Positions 5,767 through 60,602 of a stretch of DNA of 64,000 nt are shown here, one piece after another (positions within the stretch are counted from its first letter, which is position 1; the number at the start of each line of letters is the position of its first letter). This stretch comes from Octopus vulgaris. Its lineage: Eukaryota. The position numbers and the translations under genes are program-made. The notes beneath the pieces are model-generated. The model was given only the letters and a program-made list of their open reading frames with translations. It searched no databases and was not told where the DNA came from. The stretch is taken from positions 39,556,001 through 39,620,000 of the forward strand of contig OX597816.1 in the NCBI GenBank assembly GCA_951406725.2. The letters run 5' to 3'.

Positions 5767-6165
5767 TACTGGTGCAGATTAGTGTCCCTGTTCACTTTAG
5801 TGACGTATATATTTCTGTTTTCAGGTTGTAAAATTGCGAATTAGCCACCCATATTATTTATAATTCTAATACTACCGTTTATGAAATCAGTATATGATTT
5901 CAACGGAGATCTTATGAGCTGACAAGGCGACAAGGCAGGATGAGTTTATCCCTCGGTGCGGTGAGAGCTACTGATGAGCATTAAGGTGCGTTAAGCACCA
6001 GAATGTGAAATCATCGGTGATCTAGTTCTATCTGTGACCGTAAGGGGGCTTGTCTCTCTTGTCAGCAGCTCATTAAGATAGTGCTTTTTGTGGCTATTGA
6101 GCAGTTTTGACTTTTATTTCTAGCAATACTGGTGCTGGTAAGTGCCCTTGCTCACTTTAGTGACG
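5767..6165 (+). mobile_element. Retrozyme-like element, 360-nt monomer with about 39-nt terminal redundancy
   Basis: TACTGGTGC...CACTTTAGTGACG at 5767-5805 and 6127-6165. One HHR lies between them. Confidence 0.75.
5963..6030 (+). ncRNA. Type I hammerhead ribozyme, canonical core
   Basis: Stem I AGAGCTA/TAGTTCT. CTGATGA 5971-5977. Stem II GCATT/AATGT plus GGTGC/GCACC. GAAA 6007-6010. Stem III ATCA-TCGG-TGAT. AUC site, predicted cut after 6022. Confidence 0.85.
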
Positions 6166-15494: not shown

Positions 15495-15917
15495 GGATCT
15501 TTTCGGTTTGAACGGCAGTTTTTTCTAGCGGTGTCATATGAAATTGTCATCGATAATTATGACCCTAGTATCGATCTATTACATTTCAATCTGTTTTAGG
15601 GTTAGGGTTAGGGGTGGGGGGAAGGGTATCTTTTTTTCTTCACAAATGTAAATAAATCCAATCTGTTTCTTAAACGAGGGACATATTCATACGGCACAGA
15701 ATGTTTTTTTTTTTTACCTCAATAGACGTATTTGATTGGTTGAAATTGCAGAAATTGCAGAAAAAGAACAACAAATATCTTACAAACTATAGAATTTTCT
15801 CAATAAAGCCAAGAGAAAAATATGTTTTATAAACACATTGTACCAATATACGAAGTTTAAAATTTTTTAGTTACCTAGAAATTATGTTAAAAACTGCCGT
15901 TCAAACCGAAAAGATCC
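15495..15917. mobile_element. Merlin-like MITE with internal (TTAGGG)n
   Basis: TIR GGATCTTTTCGGTTTGAACGGCAGTTTT. Perfect 8-bp TSD ATGTTTTT (15487-15494 / 15918-15925). GG termini and an 8-bp TSD fit Merlin. Confidence 0.75.
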
Positions 15918-16754
15918 ATGTTTTTCATCATAATTAACCAACACCAAATATCAGCAGTGAATATTTCAGTTAAATGTTCGTGAGTTGCTTTATTTATTAT
16001 TCATGCAGCCAACAAAAGGTATCTTCATTTACCAGCTCCCCATAGCTCCAACCAAGCTACCTCTCGACAATAACATGTAGCTTTACGAATAAATCCTTTT
16101 AGTGGATATGCTCACAGAAATTTCTATAAGTTTACTTGTAAATTGGTTGTATATAGAGGAAGTTTCACCCGGAAAGAGCATGTTCATTAACGTAGCATTA
16201 ATTACGAACCGGTTCTGCTATCTTTGAACATTTTGCTTCCGCTGGTGGCACCAAATGGTTAATTGAAGCAGAGATCTTATGAGGAAATATCAAATACCTA
16301 ATTTGTTTTCCTAACACAATAATTATCACCAAAAGACGATGAAGGGAATTGAAGTAGCTCTAAAAGATTCAGTTTATAAAACTTCCTTCGTGCCAGACAA
16401 ACTTCCTGTTTCAATTTAAAACCTATTTAGTGCACTGTAAAAACATATGTACGGCAGTGTTTTCGTAAACACCTACACACATCAATATATGTGTGTGAGA
16501 TCATTAACCCTTAGACCTTCACTGGTTTCAGTAATTCGATTATGATCGCGCTCCTCTTCGGTGGAGGCAATTGCATCGACCCTAATACTAATGGTATCGA
16601 CCGCCATATATTTTCTGACCAACAGTAGAATGCAAGCAAAGCGGATGCGGGCAGAATTTGAACTCAGAACTCAAAAAGAGCATCACCCAAAACAATACCG
16701 AATTTTGCCCTCTGCCATCAGTCATCATAATATTTGTGCGTGCGCGCTCTCATG

Positions 16755-18246: not shown

Positions 18247-18311
<65 letters not shown>

Positions 18312-18523
18312 CAATAATAATTCTCTAAATGAGATATAGACAGTGACTGCTCCATAATATAAGGGATATTAGCCAACTGAATATGGCTAGGGACAGGGCA
18401 GGGTGGTGGGGTGTCACTGTTGCATTTAGCCCCAGGCGAACATCAACGTCACCAGATAGGCCGACGCCATCACGGCGTCCTCTATCTTGCAAAGGGAGAT
18501 CATTCACCAAGAAGCGGATACAA

Positions 18524-18569
18524 CACACGGACCTAGGTTTCAAGGTGTATTGCCTATTATCAACGTGTG
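18524..18569 (-). ncRNA. Type I HHR, U3-A8 core variant (left arm)
   Basis: Reverse complement of the 18905-18950 motif. Confidence 0.75.
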
Positions 18570-18901
18570 GTAGGCATCGCTTCTCGACGAACGACCAACC
18601 GTGCAAGATATATATAAAGATTTTCAAGTAAATACATTTACTGATTTCGAAAATCTGTTCGACAGCAAATTTTAAATGAGATATAGACTGACGCTCCAAT
18701 TCTCTAAATGAGATATAGACAGTGACTGCTCCATAATATACAGTTGGCTAATATCCCTTATATTATGGAGCAGTCACTGTCTATATCTCATTTAGAGAAT
18801 TATTATTGCTGTCGAACAGATTTTCGAAATCAGTAAATGTATTTACTTGAAAATCTTTATATATATCTTGCACGGTTGGTCGTTCGTCGAGAAGCGATGC
18901 C

Positions 18902-18955
18902 TACCACACGTTGATAATAGGCAATACACCTTGAAACCTAGGTCCGTGTGTGGTA
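18902..18955 (+). ncRNA. Type I HHR, U3-A8 core variant (right arm)
   Basis: Stem I CACACG/CGTGTG. TTGATAA 18911-18917. Stem II AGG/CCT. GAAAC-CTAG-GTC 18933-18944. Outer helix AGAAGCG/CGCTTCT. Confidence 0.78.
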
Positions 18956-19586
18956 TCCGCTTCTTGGTGAATGATCTCCCTTTGCAAGATAGAGGACGCC
19001 GTGATGGCGTCGGCCTATCTGGTGACGTTGATGTTCGCCTGGGGCTAAATGCAACAGTGACACCCCCACCACCCTGCCCTGTCCCTAGCCATATTCAGTT
19101 GGCTAATATCCCTTATATTATATATATATATAAATTAAATTAGAGATAAAACCACTATTAGGCAAATCAAACAGTGAAAAACATAAACCAAAACATAAAA
19201 ATAAATTAATATAATATACAATTAATTAATATAATTAATATAATATACAAAATATATAAAATATAATATTTAAAATTTAAAAAATATAAAATCAAATTAT
19301 CTAAATTTAAAATTTTTGATTTATATTTATAAATTTTTATATTTTTTAATATTTTTAAAATTTAAAATTTATAAATTTTTAAACTTTATTTTTTTAATAT
19401 TTATATTTATTTATTTATTTTTTTAATATAACTATCAAAATGGTATTAAAAAGTTTAATATAATATAATAAGTAAAACCACTACGTACGTTTCATGGCCA
19501 TAACCCAATTTATATTTATACTGTGAAATTTGATTTAATCCTAAATCTAATTTTTTCCCTGTAAGTTTGGATTTACTTCCTAATAT

Positions 19587-28644: not shown

Positions 28645-29671
28645 GTATCAATTTCCAGCTGTTCTTTTAGTTCACGACACGCATTCAGTTGTGATTGCTT
28701 TTGGTCTTCCGTGAACAAGTGCAACACAAATTTCGCTGCAACTCTTATCATTCGCTATTCCTGCCTCAAAAATTCGTTGGCAGCAGCTGCAGGACACACC
28801 AGTCATATCAGCCGGTTCGTCAATTATTCGGTGACGTCAATTATTCGGTGACGTCAATTATTCGGTAGGAGTGGCTGTGTGGTAAGTAGCTTGCTTACGA
28901 ACCACATGGTTTCGGGTTCAGTCCCACTGCGTGGCACCTTGGGCAAGTGTCTTCTACTGTAGCCTTGGGCCAACCAAAGTCTTGTGAGTGGATTTGGTAG
29001 ACGGAAACTGAAAGAAGCCCGTCGTATATGTGTACATGTATGTATATGTGTATGTGTGTATGTATGCTTGTGTGTCTGTGTTTGTCCCCCCAGCATCGCT
29101 GGACAACCGATGCTGGTGTGTTTACGTCCCCGTAACTTAGCGGCTCGGCAAAAGATACCGATGGAATAAGTACTAGGCTTACACAGAATAAGTCCTGAGG
29201 TCGATGTGCTCGACTAAAGGCGGTGCTCCCTCATGGCCACAGTCAAATGACTGAAACAAGTAAAGGAGTATGTGTTCATTTGTTCGAGAGGTCGACGGTC
29301 CCCCTGAACGAGGTTGGTCTTCAAGTGACAAATGATCATTCCTAAAGCGCGAAAACCATTCGTAAACTTGCGTGTAGCTCATGGCAGCGTCCTTGTAAGC
29401 TGTTTGAAGCATGACAACTGTTTCGGCCGCCGTTTTTCCCAGAAGAAAGCAGAATTTCACGGAAGCACGCTGTTCCTTCGCTTCAGCCATCGCAAAAATC
29501 GACGAAATACGAGAAAAGCACTACAAAACAAAGATGCACAACGTGGCAATACGACCTCACTCGCCAGTCAGCAACTGATGCCTGAGGGTCGCATCAAGTG
29601 GCTGCTAGTGTAGAAGCCTGAACTACAACTGGCTTGTTCTACATAGAACGTTACTTTTGGGTACCTCCTCG

Positions 29672-30182: not shown

Positions 30183-30268
<86 letters not shown>

Positions 30269-30362
30269 AACAAACAACAACAACAACTGAACAAGTGTTA
30301 ACAATGATAAAGATTTAGACTACAGATATATTTGGAGATGGGCTGTCTGAATTAAAATTTCG

Positions 30363-30611
30363 GCAATTTCAACCAATCAATGACGTCCATTGAGGTAAAC
30401 AACATTCTGTGCCGTATGAATATGTCCCTCGTTTAAGAAACAGATTGGGTTTATTTACATTTGTGAAGAAAAAAAGATACCCTTCCTCCCACCCCTAACC
30501 CTAACCCTAAAACAGATTAAAATGCAATAGATCGATACTAGGGTCATAATTATGGGTGACAATTTCATATGACACCGCTAGAAAAAACTGCCGTTCAAAC
30601 CGAAAAGATCC
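30363..30611 (-). mobile_element. Truncated Merlin-like MITE, inverted
   Basis: Reverse complement of the left about 250 bp of 15495-15917. Confidence 0.8.
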
Positions 30612-30982
30612 CCGTTTTCTAATACTCGCTGTTGCCCAAAATACTCGCTGCAAGTCAAAATGAATTGGGAAATTCAAGCATAGCACACATGCTTCGTGGC
30701 TGTCTGTTGACTTTGAAAGATAGCATCAGAACTTGGAATTAACCATGACAGTATTCAAAACTAGAAATATCACATTTCTAAATGTCTCAAAGAGACATGA
30801 GCGGTGGTGGAGCAATAGAGTGGTTGTATACTGTCAACATAACGTGACAGTCCCGTAAGGGAATTACATCACCGCTGTTTAGTCCTAGGAGGCATCGACA
30901 CTTCCTGTCGGCTTTGACACATTTCCTGTGTCATTATATTTGTGAAGGGGAGGCAAGTACCCCCACCAGCTAGGACTAGCAA

Positions 30983-31029
30983 CCTGAGGACATGCATGTT
31001 TCTGGGTCTTAATCCGTCATCAGCCCAGG
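30983..31029 (-). ncRNA. Type I HHR, canonical core
   Basis: Minus strand CCTGGG-CTGATGA-CGGATTAAGACCCA-GAAAC-ATGCAT-GTC-CTCAGG. Confidence 0.8.
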
Positions 31030-31045
31030 ATAGTGAGATCTACTG

Positions 31046-31091
31046 CTGGGCTGATAACGGGTTAAGACCCAGAAACATGCATGTCCTCAGG
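31046..31091 (+). ncRNA. Type I HHR with an uncompensated G8A change
   Basis: CTGGG-CTGATAA-CGGGTTAAGACCCA-GAAAC-ATGCAT-GTC-CTCAG. Confidence 0.7.
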
Positions 31092-31530
31092 TGTGAATCC
31101 TAGCTGGTGGGGGTGCTTGCCTCCCCTTCACAAATATAAGGACACAGGAAATGTGTCGAAACCGACAGGAAGCGTCGATGCTTCCTAGGGCTAAACAGCG
31201 GTGAGGTAATTCCCTTACAGGACTGTCACGTTATGCTGACAGTATACAACCACTCTAGTATTCAAAACGTTATTGAGTTATTTGGATATTCAAAAGTTTG
31301 TGTTCGCTAGGTACCAAAACAACAGATAGACGAGCCCTGGACTGAAAGAGTTAACGAGTGCACTGAAAACCTTGAACTCAGTGAAACAAACACCTTCTTT
31401 CAAAGGGTCATAAATGGTGACGAAACTGGATTCATCATTACGGACCACGTTGTTGATAAGCAATCTTCTGACCACACAACCACGCTAATGCTGTCCATAC
31501 ACATGGGCAACAGCGTGTATTAGAAAACGG

Positions 31531-31948
31531 GGATCTTTTCGGTTTGAACGGCAGTTTTTTCTAGCGGTGTCATTTGAAATTGTCACCCATAATTATGACC
31601 CTAGTATCGATCTATTGCATTTCAATCTGTTTTAGGGTTAGGGTTAGGGGTGGGGGGAAGGGTATCTTTTTTTCTTCACAAATGTAAATAAACCCAATTT
31701 GTTTCTTAAACGAGGGACATATTCATACGGCACAGAATGTTGTTTACCTCAATGGACGTCATTGATTGGTTGAAATTGCAGAAATTGCAGAAAAAAAACA
31801 ACAAATATCTTACAAACTATAGAATTTTCTCAATAAAGCCAAGAGAAAAAGATGTTTTTATAAACACATTCTACCAGTATACGAAGTTTAAAATTTTTTA
31901 GTTACCTAGAAATTATGTTAAAAACTGCCGTTCAAACTGAAAAGATCC
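31531..31948. mobile_element. Merlin-like MITE, full copy without matching TSD
   Basis: Near-identical to 15495-15917, both TIRs present. Confidence 0.8.
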
Positions 31949-32353
31949 ATGTTTTTCATCATAAATAACCAACACCAAATATCAGCAGTGAATATTTCAG
32001 TTAAATGTTCGTGACAGGAAAAGACAGGAAAACTACAGGTTTTAAGCCTTTCATTGTGGAATTTTATGTGAATATATCTTGTTTATTTTGTACAGCCCCC
32101 TCCCCCAACATAAATATACGTCGACCTGATATGTTTTATAGTTTGTTGACCACTCCTCTGAAGACAATTTGCCAACACTTTTCTGCCTACCGAAGAGAGC
32201 GCATAACAAGTTGCAATTTATATCAATAACAAACTAGAACTCAGCTATAATATTGAGGCTAATTTACGTATTTGTTGGCGGCATGATTAAATAGCAAATA
32301 AATATTTGTGCGCTACACAATGTGTATCAGAAAAGCTAAGATAAATTTAATCT

Positions 32354-33006
32354 AGGCGCAGGAGTGGCTGTGTGGTAAGTAGCTTGCTAACCAACCACAT
32401 GGTTCCGGGTTCAGTCCCACTGCGTGGCATCTTGGGCAAGTGTCTTCTGCTATAGCCCCGGGCCGACCAATGCCTTGTGAGTGGATTTGGTAGACGGAAA
32501 CTGAAAGAAGCCTGTCGTATATATGTATATATATATATGTGTGAATGTGTGTGTTTGTGTGTCTGTGTTCGTCCCCCTAGCATTGCTTGACAGCCGATGC
32601 TGGTGTGTTTACGTCCCCGTCACTTAGCGGTTCGGCAAAAGAGACCGATAGAATAAGTACTGGGCTTACAAAGAATAAGTCCCGGGGTCGATTTGCTCGA
32701 CTAAAGGCGGTGCTCCAGCATGGCCGCAGTCAAATGACTGAAACAAGTAAAAAGAGTAAAAAGAAAAGAGTAAAGTATATGTATGTATGTATGTATGTAT
32801 GTATATATGATTTTATTCTTTTACTTGTTTCAGTCATTTGACTGCGACCATGCTGGAGCACCGCCTTTCGTCGAGCGACCAGGTCTTATTCTTTGTAAGG
32901 CCTAGTACTAATTCTATCGATCTGTTTTGCCGAATCGGTAAGTTACGGGGACATAAACACACCAGCATCAGTTGCCAAGCGATGTTGGGGGAACAAACAC
33001 AGACAC

Positions 33007-40001: not shown

Positions 40002-40066
<65 letters not shown>

Positions 40067-40236
40067 CATATACGACAGGCTTCTTTCAGTTTCCGTCTAC
40101 CAAATCCACTCACAAGGCATTGGTCGGCCCGGGGCTATAGCAGAAGACACTTGCCCAAGATGCCACGCAGTGGGACTGAACCCGCAACTATGTGGTTGGT
40201 TAGCAAGCTACATACCACACAGCCACTCCTGCGCCT
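39785..40236 (-). mobile_element. SINE family A
   Basis: Matches the family A consensus. Confidence 0.9.
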
Positions 40237-40340
40237 ATATGTATATATATTTGTATATACACACATGCATACATAAATGCATACATACATACATATATAT
40301 ATATATATAGGGAGAGAGTGAAAGAGAGAGAGGGGGAGAA

Positions 40341-44937: not shown

Positions 44938-45009
44938 GTTTATATATAGATATAGATGTATATGCATACATCTATATGTGTTGATGTATATATATATATA
45001 GATGGGTTA

Positions 45010-45240
45010 GACGGCGAGCTGGCAGAAACGTTAGCGCGCCGGGCGAAATGCGTAGCCGTATTTCGTCTGCCGTTACGTTCTGAGTTCAAATTCTGCCGAG
45101 GTTGACTTTGCCTTTCATCCTTTCGGGGTCGATAAATTAAGTACCAGTTACGCACTGGGGTCGATATAATCGACTTAATCCGTTTGTCTGTCCTTGTTTG
45201 TCCCCTCTATGTTTAGCCCCTTGTGGGCAATAAAGAAATA
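45010..45240 (+). mobile_element. SINE family B, full length
   Basis: Head GGCGAGCTGGCAGAAACGTTAG, B-box GAGTTCAAATTC. Central GCCTTTCATCCTTTCGGGGTCGATAAA resembles the Meta/MESC-type SINE domain (from recall, unverified). Confidence 0.88.
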
Positions 45241-45357
45241 TATATATAGATGTACATGTAATATGTACACATATATATACACATATATACATGCATACAT
45301 ATATACACCCATACTCACACACACATATATACATGTATGTATATGTGCATATTCATA

Positions 45358-47635: not shown

Positions 47636-47699
<64 letters not shown>

Positions 47700-47864
47700 T
47701 ACGACGGGCTTCTTTCAGTTTCCGTCTACCAAATCCACTCACAATGCTTTGGTCGGCCCGAGGCTATAGTAGAAGACACTTGCCCAAGGTACCACGCAGT
47801 GGGACTGAACCCGGAACCATGTGGTTGGTAAACAAGCTACTTACCACACAGCAACTCCTGCGCC

Positions 47865-47865
<1 letters not shown>
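47417..47865 (-). mobile_element. SINE family A
   Basis: Matches the family A consensus. Confidence 0.9.
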
Positions 47866-47896
<31 letters not shown>

Positions 47897-50156: not shown

Positions 50157-50737
50157 AACATAATAAATAGGGTAATAATAAATTATTATTACCAGTGGCC
50201 TAGCACAAAAAACGAATTAGTCATTAGACTATATATTATTCACATAGAAATACAATAAGAGACTTCCAAATAAGAAAGCCTTGTGCTAGAAAGAGCAGTA
50301 GAAAAACTCAAACCACCAAATAAGGATAAATTCTCGAAAGGAATGAAAATTAAAAACGTTTACCATCTCAACTATTTCCCAGACAATGGTTTCTAACTAT
50401 TTCCAGCAAAAAAATATTCGCTGAAGGTCAGTTTCATCAGTGGGACAGCCTTTAGATTTCAAATACACAGACAGCCAGATCCACATGTAAAACTAACTGC
50501 CTGTATATTCTAACTTTTCAAACCACTGCGCTGACGCAGATTATACCCGGCGACAGAGAGGATGCCGGTAAAAATTTCGAACAAATTTATCAAAGAATAT
50601 TTAAACATAATAAATAACAATAGGGTAATAATAAATTATTATTACCAGTGGCCTTACACAAAAAACGAATTAGTCATTAGACTATATATTATTCACATGG
50701 AAATACAATAAGAGGCTTTCCTATTTGGAAGCCTCTT

Positions 50738-54579: not shown

Positions 54580-56163
54580 CTCTTCCTCCCCATGAAATTT
54601 CAGGCCTTGTGCCTATAGTAGAAAGTATCATTATCATCCAGGGCGGTGGATTGACAGAATAGTTAGATCATCGGGAAAACAAAAAAAAAAAAAAAAAACG
54701 CTTTGTGGTGTTTGCTCCGATTTTTTACGTTCTGACTTTGAATTTCGCTGTGATCAAGCATGCCTTTCATCTTTTCGGAGTCGATAAAATAGAGTACCTG
54801 TCAAGTGGTTGGGTCGAATGTATCGCCTAGCCTCTTGCCCTACGATCCCTGGTCTTGTACCAAAATTTGAAGCCAAAGGCGACAAACTAGCTGAGTCGTT
54901 AGCGCGCCATACAAAAGGCTTAGCCAGCAATTCTTCTCGTTCTTTACGTTCTGAGTTCAAATACCACCGAGGTCAACTTTGTCTTTCATCTTTTCGGGGT
55001 CGATAAAATAATTACCAGTTAAGCATCGAGATCAAAGTAATCGGTTGGATTCTTCCTCAAAAATTTCAGACCTTTGTCGATAGTAGAAAGGATTATTATT
55101 GTTATTATTAAGGCGGCGAGCTTGCAATATCCTTACTGCACTGGAGAAAGTGCTTAGCGGCATTTCTTCCGACTTTACGTTCTGCGTTCATATGCCGCCG
55201 GTGTCAACTTTACCTCTCATCCTTTCGGGGTCGATAAAATAAGTACCAGTTGAGCACTTGGGTCGATGTAATCAACTTGCTTCTTCCACTACAATTGCTG
55301 GCCTTGTGACAAAATTTGAAACCATCATCATTATTATTATCATCATCCAGTGCCGTAGATTAGCGGAATCTTTAGCGTGTCGAGTATTCAGACGAACGTA
55401 GCTCCCAATGACTGATACGTAAGCAAGGACGGAGCTTCGTCAAGTTCGGGACCCATCCAAAGTTGTGTATATATATAGTATACTTATATACACAATATAC
55501 ACATATTAGACATCCAATGGTGGATCTACTTTCATAATGTAACATTTCCTCGATCGAGATTCTGAGTACTATCTAAGTCATTGATTTCAAATTTTGGCAC
55601 AAGACCAGCAATTTCAGGGGAGGTAGCGAGTCGATTACATCGACCCCTGTGCTAAACTGGTATTTATTTCGTCGAGAACAAAAGGACGAAAGGTAAGTCA
55701 ACCTCGGCAGAATTTGAACTCAGAAAGTAATGACGGACGAAATACCTATTTCTTTACTACCCACAAGGGTCTAAACACAGAGAAGACAAACAAAGATAGA
55801 CAAACGGATTAAGTCGATTATATCGACCCCAGTGCGTAACTGGTACTTATTTAATCGACCCCGAAAGGATGAAAGGCAAAGTCGACCTCGGCGGAATTTG
55901 AATTCAGAACGTAGCCGCAGACGAAATACCTATTTCTTTACTACCCACAAGGGGTTAAACATAGAGGGGACAAACAAGGACAGACATTGGTATTAAGTCG
56001 ATTACATCGACCCCAGTGCGTAACTGGTACTTAATTTATCGACCCCGAAAGGATGAAAGGTAAAGTCGACCTCGGCGGAATTTGAACTCACAACGTAGCC
56101 GCAGACGAAATACCGCTAAGTAATTTGTCCAGAATGCTAACAATTCTGAAAGCTCGCTGCCTT
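54580..56163. mobile_element. Dense family B SINE cluster with a tandem array (55580-56163, minus)
   Basis: At least 7 B bodies. Period about 183 bp via the AAATACCTATTTCTTT junction. Confidence 0.85.
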
Positions 56164-57082: not shown

Positions 57083-57114
57083 TATATAATACATATATTT
57101 TGAGATATATGTTA

Positions 57115-57533
57115 CTTATTTCTTTATTGCCCACAAGGGGCTAAACATAGACGAGACAAACAAGGACAGACAAAGGGATGAAGTCGATTACAACAACCCC
57201 AGTGTGTAACTGGTACTTAATTTATCGACCCCGAAAGGATGAAAGGCAAAGTCGACCTCGGCGGAATTTGAACTCAGAACGTAACGGCAGACGAAATACC
57301 TATTTCTTTACTACCCACAAGGGGCTAAACACAGAGAGGACAAACAAGGACAGACAAAGAGATTAAGTTGATTACATCGACCCCAGTGTGTAACTGGTAC
57401 TTAATTTATCGACCCCGAAAGGATGAAAGGCAAAGTCGACCTCGGCGGAATTTGAACTCAGAACGTAACGGCTGACGAAATATCGCTAGGCATTTTGCCC
57501 GGCGTGCTAACGTTTCTGCCAGCTCGCCGCCTT
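57115..57533 (-). mobile_element. Family B SINE tandem dimer (one head, two bodies)
   Basis: Bodies about 183 bp apart. Head only at 57480-57533. Confidence 0.88.
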
Positions 57534-59022: not shown

Positions 59023-59803
59023 AAATGCTTAGCGGTATTTCGTCTGCCGCTACGTTCTGAGTTCAAATTCCGCCGAGGTCGACTTTGCCTTTTATCCTTT
59101 CGGGGTCGATTAAATAAGTACCAGTTGCGCACTGGGGTCGATATAATCGACTTAATCCGTTTGTCTGTCCGTGTTTGTTCTCTCTGTGTTTAGCCCCTTG
59201 TGGGTAGTAAAGAAAAAAGGTATTTATTTTATCGACACCGAAAGGATGAAAGGCAAAGTCGACCTCAGATGAATTTGAACTCAGAACGTAAAGAGTTGGA
59301 AGAAATGCTGCTTGGGATTTTGTCTGACGTGCTAATGATTCTGCCAGTTCGCTGCCTTTATAATAATTCTCTCTAATTTTGGCACAAGGCCGGTAAGTTT
59401 GAGAGAAGAGGGCAGTCGATTAAAATGACTTTAGTGCTCAGCTGTTGCTTTCGTCGACTCCAAAAAGATGAAAGGCAAAGCTGACCTCAGTGGAATGTGA
59501 ACTCAGAACGTAGGGAACTGAAAAAAAAAATGCCGTCAAGCAATTCGCCCGATGCGCTAATGATTCTGCCAGCTCGTCGAATTAGATGCTTTAAATATTG
59601 GTTTCAAATTTTGGCACAAGGCCAGAAATTTCGAGGGAGGAGTTAATTTGTTTACATCGACCCAGTGTTCAACTGATACCTAATTTGTTGACCCCCAAGA
59701 GGATGAAAGGCAAAGTCGACGCCGGTGGAATTTGAACTCCGAATGTAACGACGGACACATTGCAGCTAAGTGTTTGCTCGGTGTGCTAACGATTCTGCCT
59801 GCT
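59023..59803. mobile_element. Family B SINE cluster (one plus, three minus)
   Basis: Repeated B cores. Confidence 0.85.
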
Positions 59804-60370: not shown

Positions 60371-60426
<56 letters not shown>

Positions 60427-60602
60427 GTATATATACACACATATATACGACGGGCTTCTTTCAGTTTCTGTCTACCAAATCCTCTCACAAGGTTTTGGTC
60501 GGCCCGAGGCTATAGTAGAAAACACTCACCCAAGGTGCCACGCAGTGGGCCTGAACTCGGGACCATGTGGTTCGTTAGCAAGCTACTTACCACACAGCCA
60601 CT
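60135..60602 (-). mobile_element. SINE family A
   Basis: Matches the family A consensus. Confidence 0.9.

Follow-up and report, generated by a model that had tools for sequence, protein, structure and literature searches.

The question raised by this locus is how a short non-coding unit with two divergent hammerhead ribozyme motifs came to lie within a mariner-like fragment of the Octopus vulgaris genome, and whether it arrived there in a single event. The window analysed was a 64,000-nucleotide stretch of contig OX597816.1, and all positions given below refer to it. The answer proposed here, with a probability of roughly three in four, is an ORF-less insertion of the type made by Penelope-like elements (PLEs), produced by a single staggered-cut event. 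The insert most likely consists of two head-to-head, hammerhead-bearing pLTR copies, one of them with a tail, made by PLE machinery, and the most likely source was a 5'-truncated PLE transcript or a non-autonomous derivative.

The insert measures 495 bp and is enclosed between two exact copies of the 12-mer AGTATTCAAAAC on the plus strand (30750-30761, reading SIQN in the mariner frame, and 31257-31268), which has no further occurrence in the 64 kb and can be extended on neither side. At a given site this 12-mer is expected by chance with a probability of 1.6e-7, which rises to about 3e-5 when 200 positions are allowed for the free end. The target-site duplication (TSD) is 12 bp long; it shrinks to 11 bp when the A at 31257 is assigned to the element, since the left arm has an identical A at the equivalent position. 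The interval between the copies begins with a 54-nt tail and a 213-nt arm; a spacer of 17 nt then leads to the inverted arm of 211 nt. The 3' tail (30762-30815, minus strand) is present on one arm only, is unpaired with the other, and terminates in ...TTTCTA. The left arm (30816-31028) is a pLTR-like unit of structured RNA with its sense on the minus strand; the spacer (31029-31045) forms the head-to-head junction and is an imperfect palindrome centred on AGATCT (31036-31041); and the right arm (31046-31256, plus strand) has no tail, ends in ...CACTCT(A) and has 1 nt in common with the TSD, the inverted arms with this shared base running from 30816 to 31028 and from 31046 to 31257. The original prediction of a 495-bp unit bounded by a 12-bp TSD and made of a tail plus two inverted arms of about 210 bp stood; the distance of 16 bp given for the ribozymes needed correction, the spacer between the two stem-I starts being 17 nt.

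The tail folds into two adjacent short hairpins (z=-2.45, 3 of 150 shuffles equally stable), and arm plus tail is more stable than any of 150 shuffles (z=-3.56). The tail hairpins (30762-30800, minus strand) have 7 to 9 bp, and the element 3' end coincides with the base of the last one. No ORF, RT or GIY-YIG sequence was found within the insert, and no ORF start running to the arm end was found in the arm. The terminal inverted repeats directly inside the TSD that would mark a MITE or TIR DNA transposon are absent, because the left arm lies 54 nt away from the TSD and the two arms adjoin at the centre of the unit. Tandem Repeats Finder (TRF) reported no array at the insert, the units of which are head-to-head; the nearest arrays lie at 30187-30276 and 32778-32809, in agreement with the claim that the insertion is outside a microsatellite.

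The target appears, from its conceptual translation, to be a dead fragment derived from a mariner. Its left part (30650-30761, plus strand, left boundary approximate) contains stops and a frameshift and is presumably the second-HTH region, going by its motifs. The right part (31269-31503, plus strand) runs from a WVP-type linker, in which a stop (31308) takes the place of W, and continues as far as the first catalytic D (31419), after which a frameshift leads into WIHHY. Over its length of about 360 bp the fragment is interrupted by stops in frame (30681, 30708, 30714 and 31308) and by a frameshift near 31427, and its longest open stretch is 64 aa; an intact mariner ORF with a DD34D triad and its own TIRs is absent. 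The predicted target was right as regards mariner-derived sequence, but wrong in calling it an ORF. Joining the flanks without the insert gives IASELGINHDSIQNVIELFGYSKVCVR*VPK...RVINGDET, followed by the frameshift into WIHHY. This continuous mariner-like reading agrees with the claim that removal of the insert restores the transposase frame, but frame continuity is uninformative: 12, 495 and 507 are all multiples of 3, so that the frame holds equally whether no, one or two TSD copies are present and even with the insert left in place. The interval from helix start to W is presumably more telling: with one TSD copy it has 28 residues, which would be the Mos1 length, against 24 with none and 32 with two.

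Atlas feature matches of the fragment were to SETMAR-fragment and PF01359 clusters (score 0.90-0.91, to be taken as a lead only), and the spacing from the linker P to the first catalytic D is 35, equal to P121-D156 of Mos1 in the accessible text of PMC4344528. With the mariner-like reading, a full phmmer search and a search of PDB sequences each gave 0 matches, a Pfam scan gave only sub-threshold unrelated families, and no mariner protein was found by word-index searches, in a plasmid collection (one chance match, E=7) or in GTDB (one chance match of 19 residues).

The window is AT-rich (GC 0.28-0.47 per 2 kb) and dense in microsatellites and dispersed repeats. The insertion site is enclosed by a 283-bp inverted repeat, the left copy of which (30356-30638, minus strand) is a partial inverted copy, with 6 differences in 283, of a separate repeat of about 510 bp (31504-32014, plus strand), whose first 283 bp (31504-31786) form the right copy. 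A further copy of the ~510-bp repeat lies at 15495-15983, and no TSD was found around the composite that the 283-bp inverted repeat encloses. The ~510-bp repeat has 36-bp subterminal inverted repeats (31524-31559 and 31920-31955) and a short TTAGGG run. A second fold-back, much younger, lies in (TA)n at 18310-19121; its 261-nt arms were reported as 100 % complementary, a 75-nt terminal segment is repeated in direct and inverted orientation at its centre, and a hammerhead core is absent. It resembles the tandem/inverted structures of Naiad type, had no match in the accessible text of the PMC8557442 supplement, and, being near-identical, could be an assembly artefact. Also present were a 159-bp tandem repeat (2013-2466; 2.8 copies, 95 % identity) that overlaps open frames of 221-233 codons and contains no hammerhead by the descriptor described below, and 184-bp tandem units of a dispersed repeat (55629-56114 and 57113-57482, related sequence near 45006-45245 and 59023-59215), for which Rfam gave no match at the gathering threshold and which we take to resemble an octopus RTE-related repeat. 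A SINE-like repeat with microsatellite tails, presumably an octopus tRNA-derived SINE, occurs at 672-895, 1506-1729, 28867-29085, 32350-32573, 40012-40240, 47647-47869 and 60387-60602.

The arms carry type I hammerhead motifs at 30984-31028 (left, minus strand; C3 at 31023, GUC cleavage triplet ending at 30989) and 31046-31090 (right, plus strand; GUC cleavage triplet ending at 31085). Each reads, in order: stem I; CUGAU(G/A)A and one additional C; stem II, which has 4 bp and is capped by a UAAG loop; A-GAAA; the palindrome ACAUGCAUGU; the GUC triplet; and finally the strand that completes stem I. Neither is intact. The left motif has an intact CUGAUGA core, an extra A before GAAA, a palindromic helix III and one A.C mismatch in stem II (31013); the right has a perfect 4-bp stem II and the core change G8A at 31056. 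In the anole element, G8C abolishes cleavage and G8 is required (PMC11167929, accessible text). Since each damaging change is private to one arm, core and stem II were both intact in the common ancestor. Both arms share the extra A and a short stem II, and the source ribozyme may for that reason have been poor already before insertion.

A structural descriptor, composed after the motif was seen and permitting its extra A, gave two matches in the 64 kb, both in the insert, whereas 60 dinucleotide shuffles averaged 0.05 matches and yielded none with a palindromic helix III. As claimed, the two motifs lie back to back and point apart. Loose CTGANGA..GAAA matches numbered 7 in the window with 3.2 expected, and only that at 31023 passed the structural descriptor; the loose CTGATGA...GAAA matches at 5971-6010 (plus strand) and 50400-50440 (minus strand), which failed it, are probably due to chance. 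The PLE hammerhead consensus in Fig. S3 of PMC4209133, CUGANGAH-G..C-GAAA-N-palindrome-NUH, is matched by both motifs, and an extra A before GAAA is found in 1 of the 56 rows of that figure. Between copies, the helix III palindromes pair in each of the three combinations. Rfam gave no match in the 64 kb at the gathering threshold and seven sub-threshold matches at E<=10, the best of them miRNA models on the hairpin and none a hammerhead. Free-energy folding of either motif alone did not return the hammerhead fold, with z of 0.28 to 1.16 in three of four folds and -0.14 in the other.

Assignment to the PLEs is based on architecture and ribozyme type, because RT/GIY-YIG sequence and other copies were not found. 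The insert has a minimal type I hammerhead in a terminal repeat, a head-to-head inverted 5' repeat, a short TSD (11-12 bp) around the whole unit and an imperfect palindrome at the inverted junction. Its one-sided extension, at 54 nt, is longer than the PLE tails of 30-40 bp in the accessible text of PMC8557442 and PMC11167929. A six-frame motif scan of the window detected no PLE motif in context, no second copy of the arm was present in the 64 kb, and the arm had no match in GTDB genomes or in the text of the PMC8557442 supplement, where cells limited to 400 characters make this a weak null. The insert, which has no ORF, is not an autonomous EN+ PLE; nor is it a non-LTR retrozyme of the tandem kind, its units being head-to-head. 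It is inert now. If read through, it forms a hairpin of about 210 bp (about -400 kcal/mol), which by this folding model would sequester both ribozymes.

The novelty implied for the structure was not upheld, since the same architecture is known in PLEs (PMC3846280, PMC4209133, PMC8557442, accessible text of each), and the TSD and the non-microsatellite (transposon) target have likewise been described for them. The accessible part of PMC3846280 reports inverted pLTRs of about 200 bp with a 31-bp tail on one and palindromes at the junctions, the head-to-head form being usual, together with TSDs of 8, 9 and 10 bp, an empty site verified in one case, and other retrotransposons as targets. According to the text available from PMC8557442, an inverted 5'-truncated copy and a one-sided 30-40-bp tail are general PLE features. 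The commonest Drosophila virilis form has inverted terminal repeats (PMC2377424, in the part available), inverted repeats and a tail are among the PLE curation signs listed in PMC8969392, and the accessible text of PMC4209133 describes dual hammerheads on opposite strands about 100-700 bp apart, as well as a truncated PLE with a second, opposite-strand hammerhead. For PLEs with hammerheads, a target outside microsatellites is nothing unusual; the microsatellite preference described in the available text of PMC8557442 belongs to Naiad/Chlamys, which are without canonical hammerheads. The modest oddities of the insert are the lack of a body between its two repeats, the spacing of only 17 nt between the ribozymes, the 54-nt tail and the 12-bp TSD.

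Among individual systems, the elements Pen2a_Av, Pen2_Av and Pen3a_Av of Adineta vaga (PMC3846280, as far as its accessible text goes) share with the insert head-to-head repeats of about 200 bp with a tail on one, a junction palindrome, one TSD around the unit and a transposon target; in the insert, by contrast, the repeats enclose neither an ORF nor captured sequence, a direct pLTR copy is absent, and the tail (54 nt vs 31) and TSD (11-12 bp vs 8-10) are longer. Metazoan PLE minimal type I hammerheads, in the available text of PMC4209133, resemble those of the insert in the CUGANGAH core with an extra base after A9, a G-C closing stem II, pairing of the helix III palindrome between copies and occurrence in opposite-strand pairs, whereas the insert motifs are 17 nt rather than about 100-700 bp apart, have an extra A before GAAA and are both damaged. 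In Poseidon PAc of Anolis carolinensis (PMC11167929, accessible text) the target is likewise AT-rich, the hammerhead is likewise uncut in the inserted copy and, on our reading, the tail likewise equals the interval between RT starts; in contrast, the PAc ORF begins inside the hammerhead and RT starts about 110 nt into the ORF, whereas the insert has no ORF start and its element ends lie 208 and 262 nt past C3. More generally, Penelope/Poseidon pLTRs as described differ from the insert arm, which contains no ORF start running to its end. Naiad PLEs also have an inverted 5' copy and a one-sided tail (PMC8557442, text available), but are without canonical hammerheads and prefer (TA)n, unlike the insert with its hammerheads and non-repetitive site. 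Non-LTR retrozymes (PMC7229834; bioRxiv 10.64898/2026.07.22.740005; both as far as accessible) are similar in that their units are non-coding, about 280 nt long and equipped with a type I hammerhead and a TSD of >4 bp, and are thought to be mobilised by PLEs, but they are defined by head-to-tail tandems. The units of the insert are head-to-head, and the ribozymes are therefore on opposite strands and unable to act as a tandem pair.

The claim that tail and fold-back were inserted together in a single staggered-cut event is the best reading of the locus, given the one exact TSD and the cDNA polarity seen at both junctions. At each junction, antisense (cDNA-polarity) element sequence follows directly after the target 3' end, the top strand being followed by the tail end and the bottom strand by the arm end, and both element ends close with TCTA. 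Beyond the two putative nicks, 5 of 7 bases agree (p=0.015, chosen post hoc and not significant at 4, 10 or 12 nt). Within the PLE-type single-event reading, priming from both ends stands at even odds, with snap-back or self-priming somewhat behind it.

In the two-end model, the AT-rich, loosely symmetric cut site within the dead mariner would be nicked twice, 12 nt apart, by a GIY-YIG/RT protein from another locus, leaving 3' overhangs. The top-strand 3'-OH would then prime reverse transcription at a distal start site, copying tail, arm and hammerhead, and the bottom-strand 3'-OH would prime at a proximal start 54 nt further in, copying the tail-less arm. Both cDNAs would end just 5' of the hammerhead and be joined at the AGATCT quasi-palindrome that forms the observed junction, gap filling by repair would give rise to the TSD, and neutral decay would follow, with one damaging change in each hammerhead. 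Both the priming and the joining are reconstructed from a single locus. Two-end priming is proposed because the anole PLE shows two RT start sites and two-strand extension in vitro: its protein cleaves and extends both target strands, and the interval between its two internal RT start sites equals the tail, with the hammerhead uncut in the inserted template (PMC11167929, accessible text). In LINE-1 twin priming, too, reverse transcription starts from the two ends of a staggered cut, as proposed for the insert, but there the inverted part comes from a different, upstream region of one RNA and a poly(A) tail is retained, whereas the insert has the same segment twice and no poly(A).

The closest competitor, possible though on the unlikely side, is a PLE-type event with one priming, in which the cDNA or an antisense template folds back at the palindrome near the RNA 5' end, copies itself for about 210 nt and jumps to the other end, the arms being identical at birth. 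The quasi-palindrome lies at the apex, where such folding would take place, and self-priming is the explanation given in the accessible text of PMC3846280 for head-to-head repeats with junction palindromes. It leaves unexplained, however, why the copied arm stops where the hairpin-bearing, tail-like unit starts and why TCTA is found at both ends.

The arms themselves bear on both routes. They differ at 12 of 207 sites, 10 of the 12 being transitions (p=5e-4 against random error), and at one block just 3' of the hammerhead (30976-30981, minus strand), where 6 nt stand against 5 nt at 31093-31097; homopolymer indels between the arms are absent. Polarising the differences by folding cost gave no consistent direction. 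The predominance of transitions, the single damaging hammerhead change in each arm and the undirected folding cost look like neutral decay, as expected if one arm had been copied from the other. A-to-I editing of the template was considered and rejected: 7 of the 10 transitions are A/G in the sense orientation, but both polarisable ones are G to A. The left-arm version of the block completes a perfect 9-bp long-range stem (30973-30981 with 30880-30889, minus strand), the right-arm version is the complement of 6 nt that lie 30 nt downstream, and either could be a hairpin-templated multi-base change.

Arm divergence (5.8 %, 12/207) exceeds that of the enclosing inverted repeat (2.1 %, 6/283; Fisher p=0.049, or p=0.030 with the block counted). 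The copy of the enclosing repeat at 15495 differs at 16 of about 486 sites, which is not significantly different from the arms (p=0.14). The excess in the arms therefore points either to non-identical templates or to a younger or gene-converted enclosing repeat; if the enclosing repeat is the older of the two, arms made by self-copying should diverge no more than it does. By the octopus calibration in the available text of PMC13282606, where a JC distance of 0.09 corresponds to 25 My, the insertion is about 8 My old (range 4-14), if the arms were identical at birth, and an unmutated 12-bp TSD at about 8 My is unremarkable (p=0.49).

Excess divergence and the block difference would also be accounted for if a ready-made fold-back had been copied here from a source locus, by trans retrotransposition or at the DNA level, with arm differences that predate the insertion, and pLTR-bounded units do move in trans (PMC3846280, accessible text). 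This is improbable: an RNA with a 210-bp hairpin (-400 kcal/mol) would be a poor RT template, the window holds no second copy, and the excess is borderline and equally explained by a younger enclosing repeat, as the copy at 15495 illustrates. Still less probable is that a monomeric non-LTR retrozyme or solo pLTR was inserted first and that a template switch during local replication added the inverted arm later. Retrozyme derivatives are often monomeric (bioRxiv 10.64898/2026.07.22.740005, text available) and a second inverted duplication does surround the site (30356-30638 / 31504-31786), but a later inverted duplication of the arm would have had to abut the TSD exactly and leave it intact, a head-to-tail repeat is absent, and a tail on one arm is a published PLE signature (PMC3846280, PMC8557442, in the parts accessible). 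A fold-back chimera of assembly or sequencing is hardly credible even though such inverted repeats trouble assemblies (PMC8557442, accessible text), because it would make neither the exact TSD nor the one-sided tail, and the arm differences, being mutation and not read error, bear out the earlier argument against an artefact.

Taken as a PLE structure, the insert is ordinary, and its value is that of a minimal specimen with readable boundaries: it has no ORF, a non-repetitive target and an unambiguous duplication, of the kind that insertions into microsatellites hide. The origin of the inverted pLTRs and tails of PLEs is still open according to the accessible text of PMC8557442 and PMC11167929. 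A more specific and quite tentative proposal is that the two arms were copied from two different RNAs by a dimeric PLE enzyme with two fixed starts and joined upstream of the ribozyme. The arm divergence (p=0.03-0.05), the block difference, the TCTA ends and the loosely symmetric target are compatible with it, and no statement of such a model was found in a literature search that covered few subscription papers. If it is true, inverted pLTRs would be heterodimers at birth and not self-copies, and tail, inversion and TSD would be explained in one step, replacing the idea of antisense self-priming.
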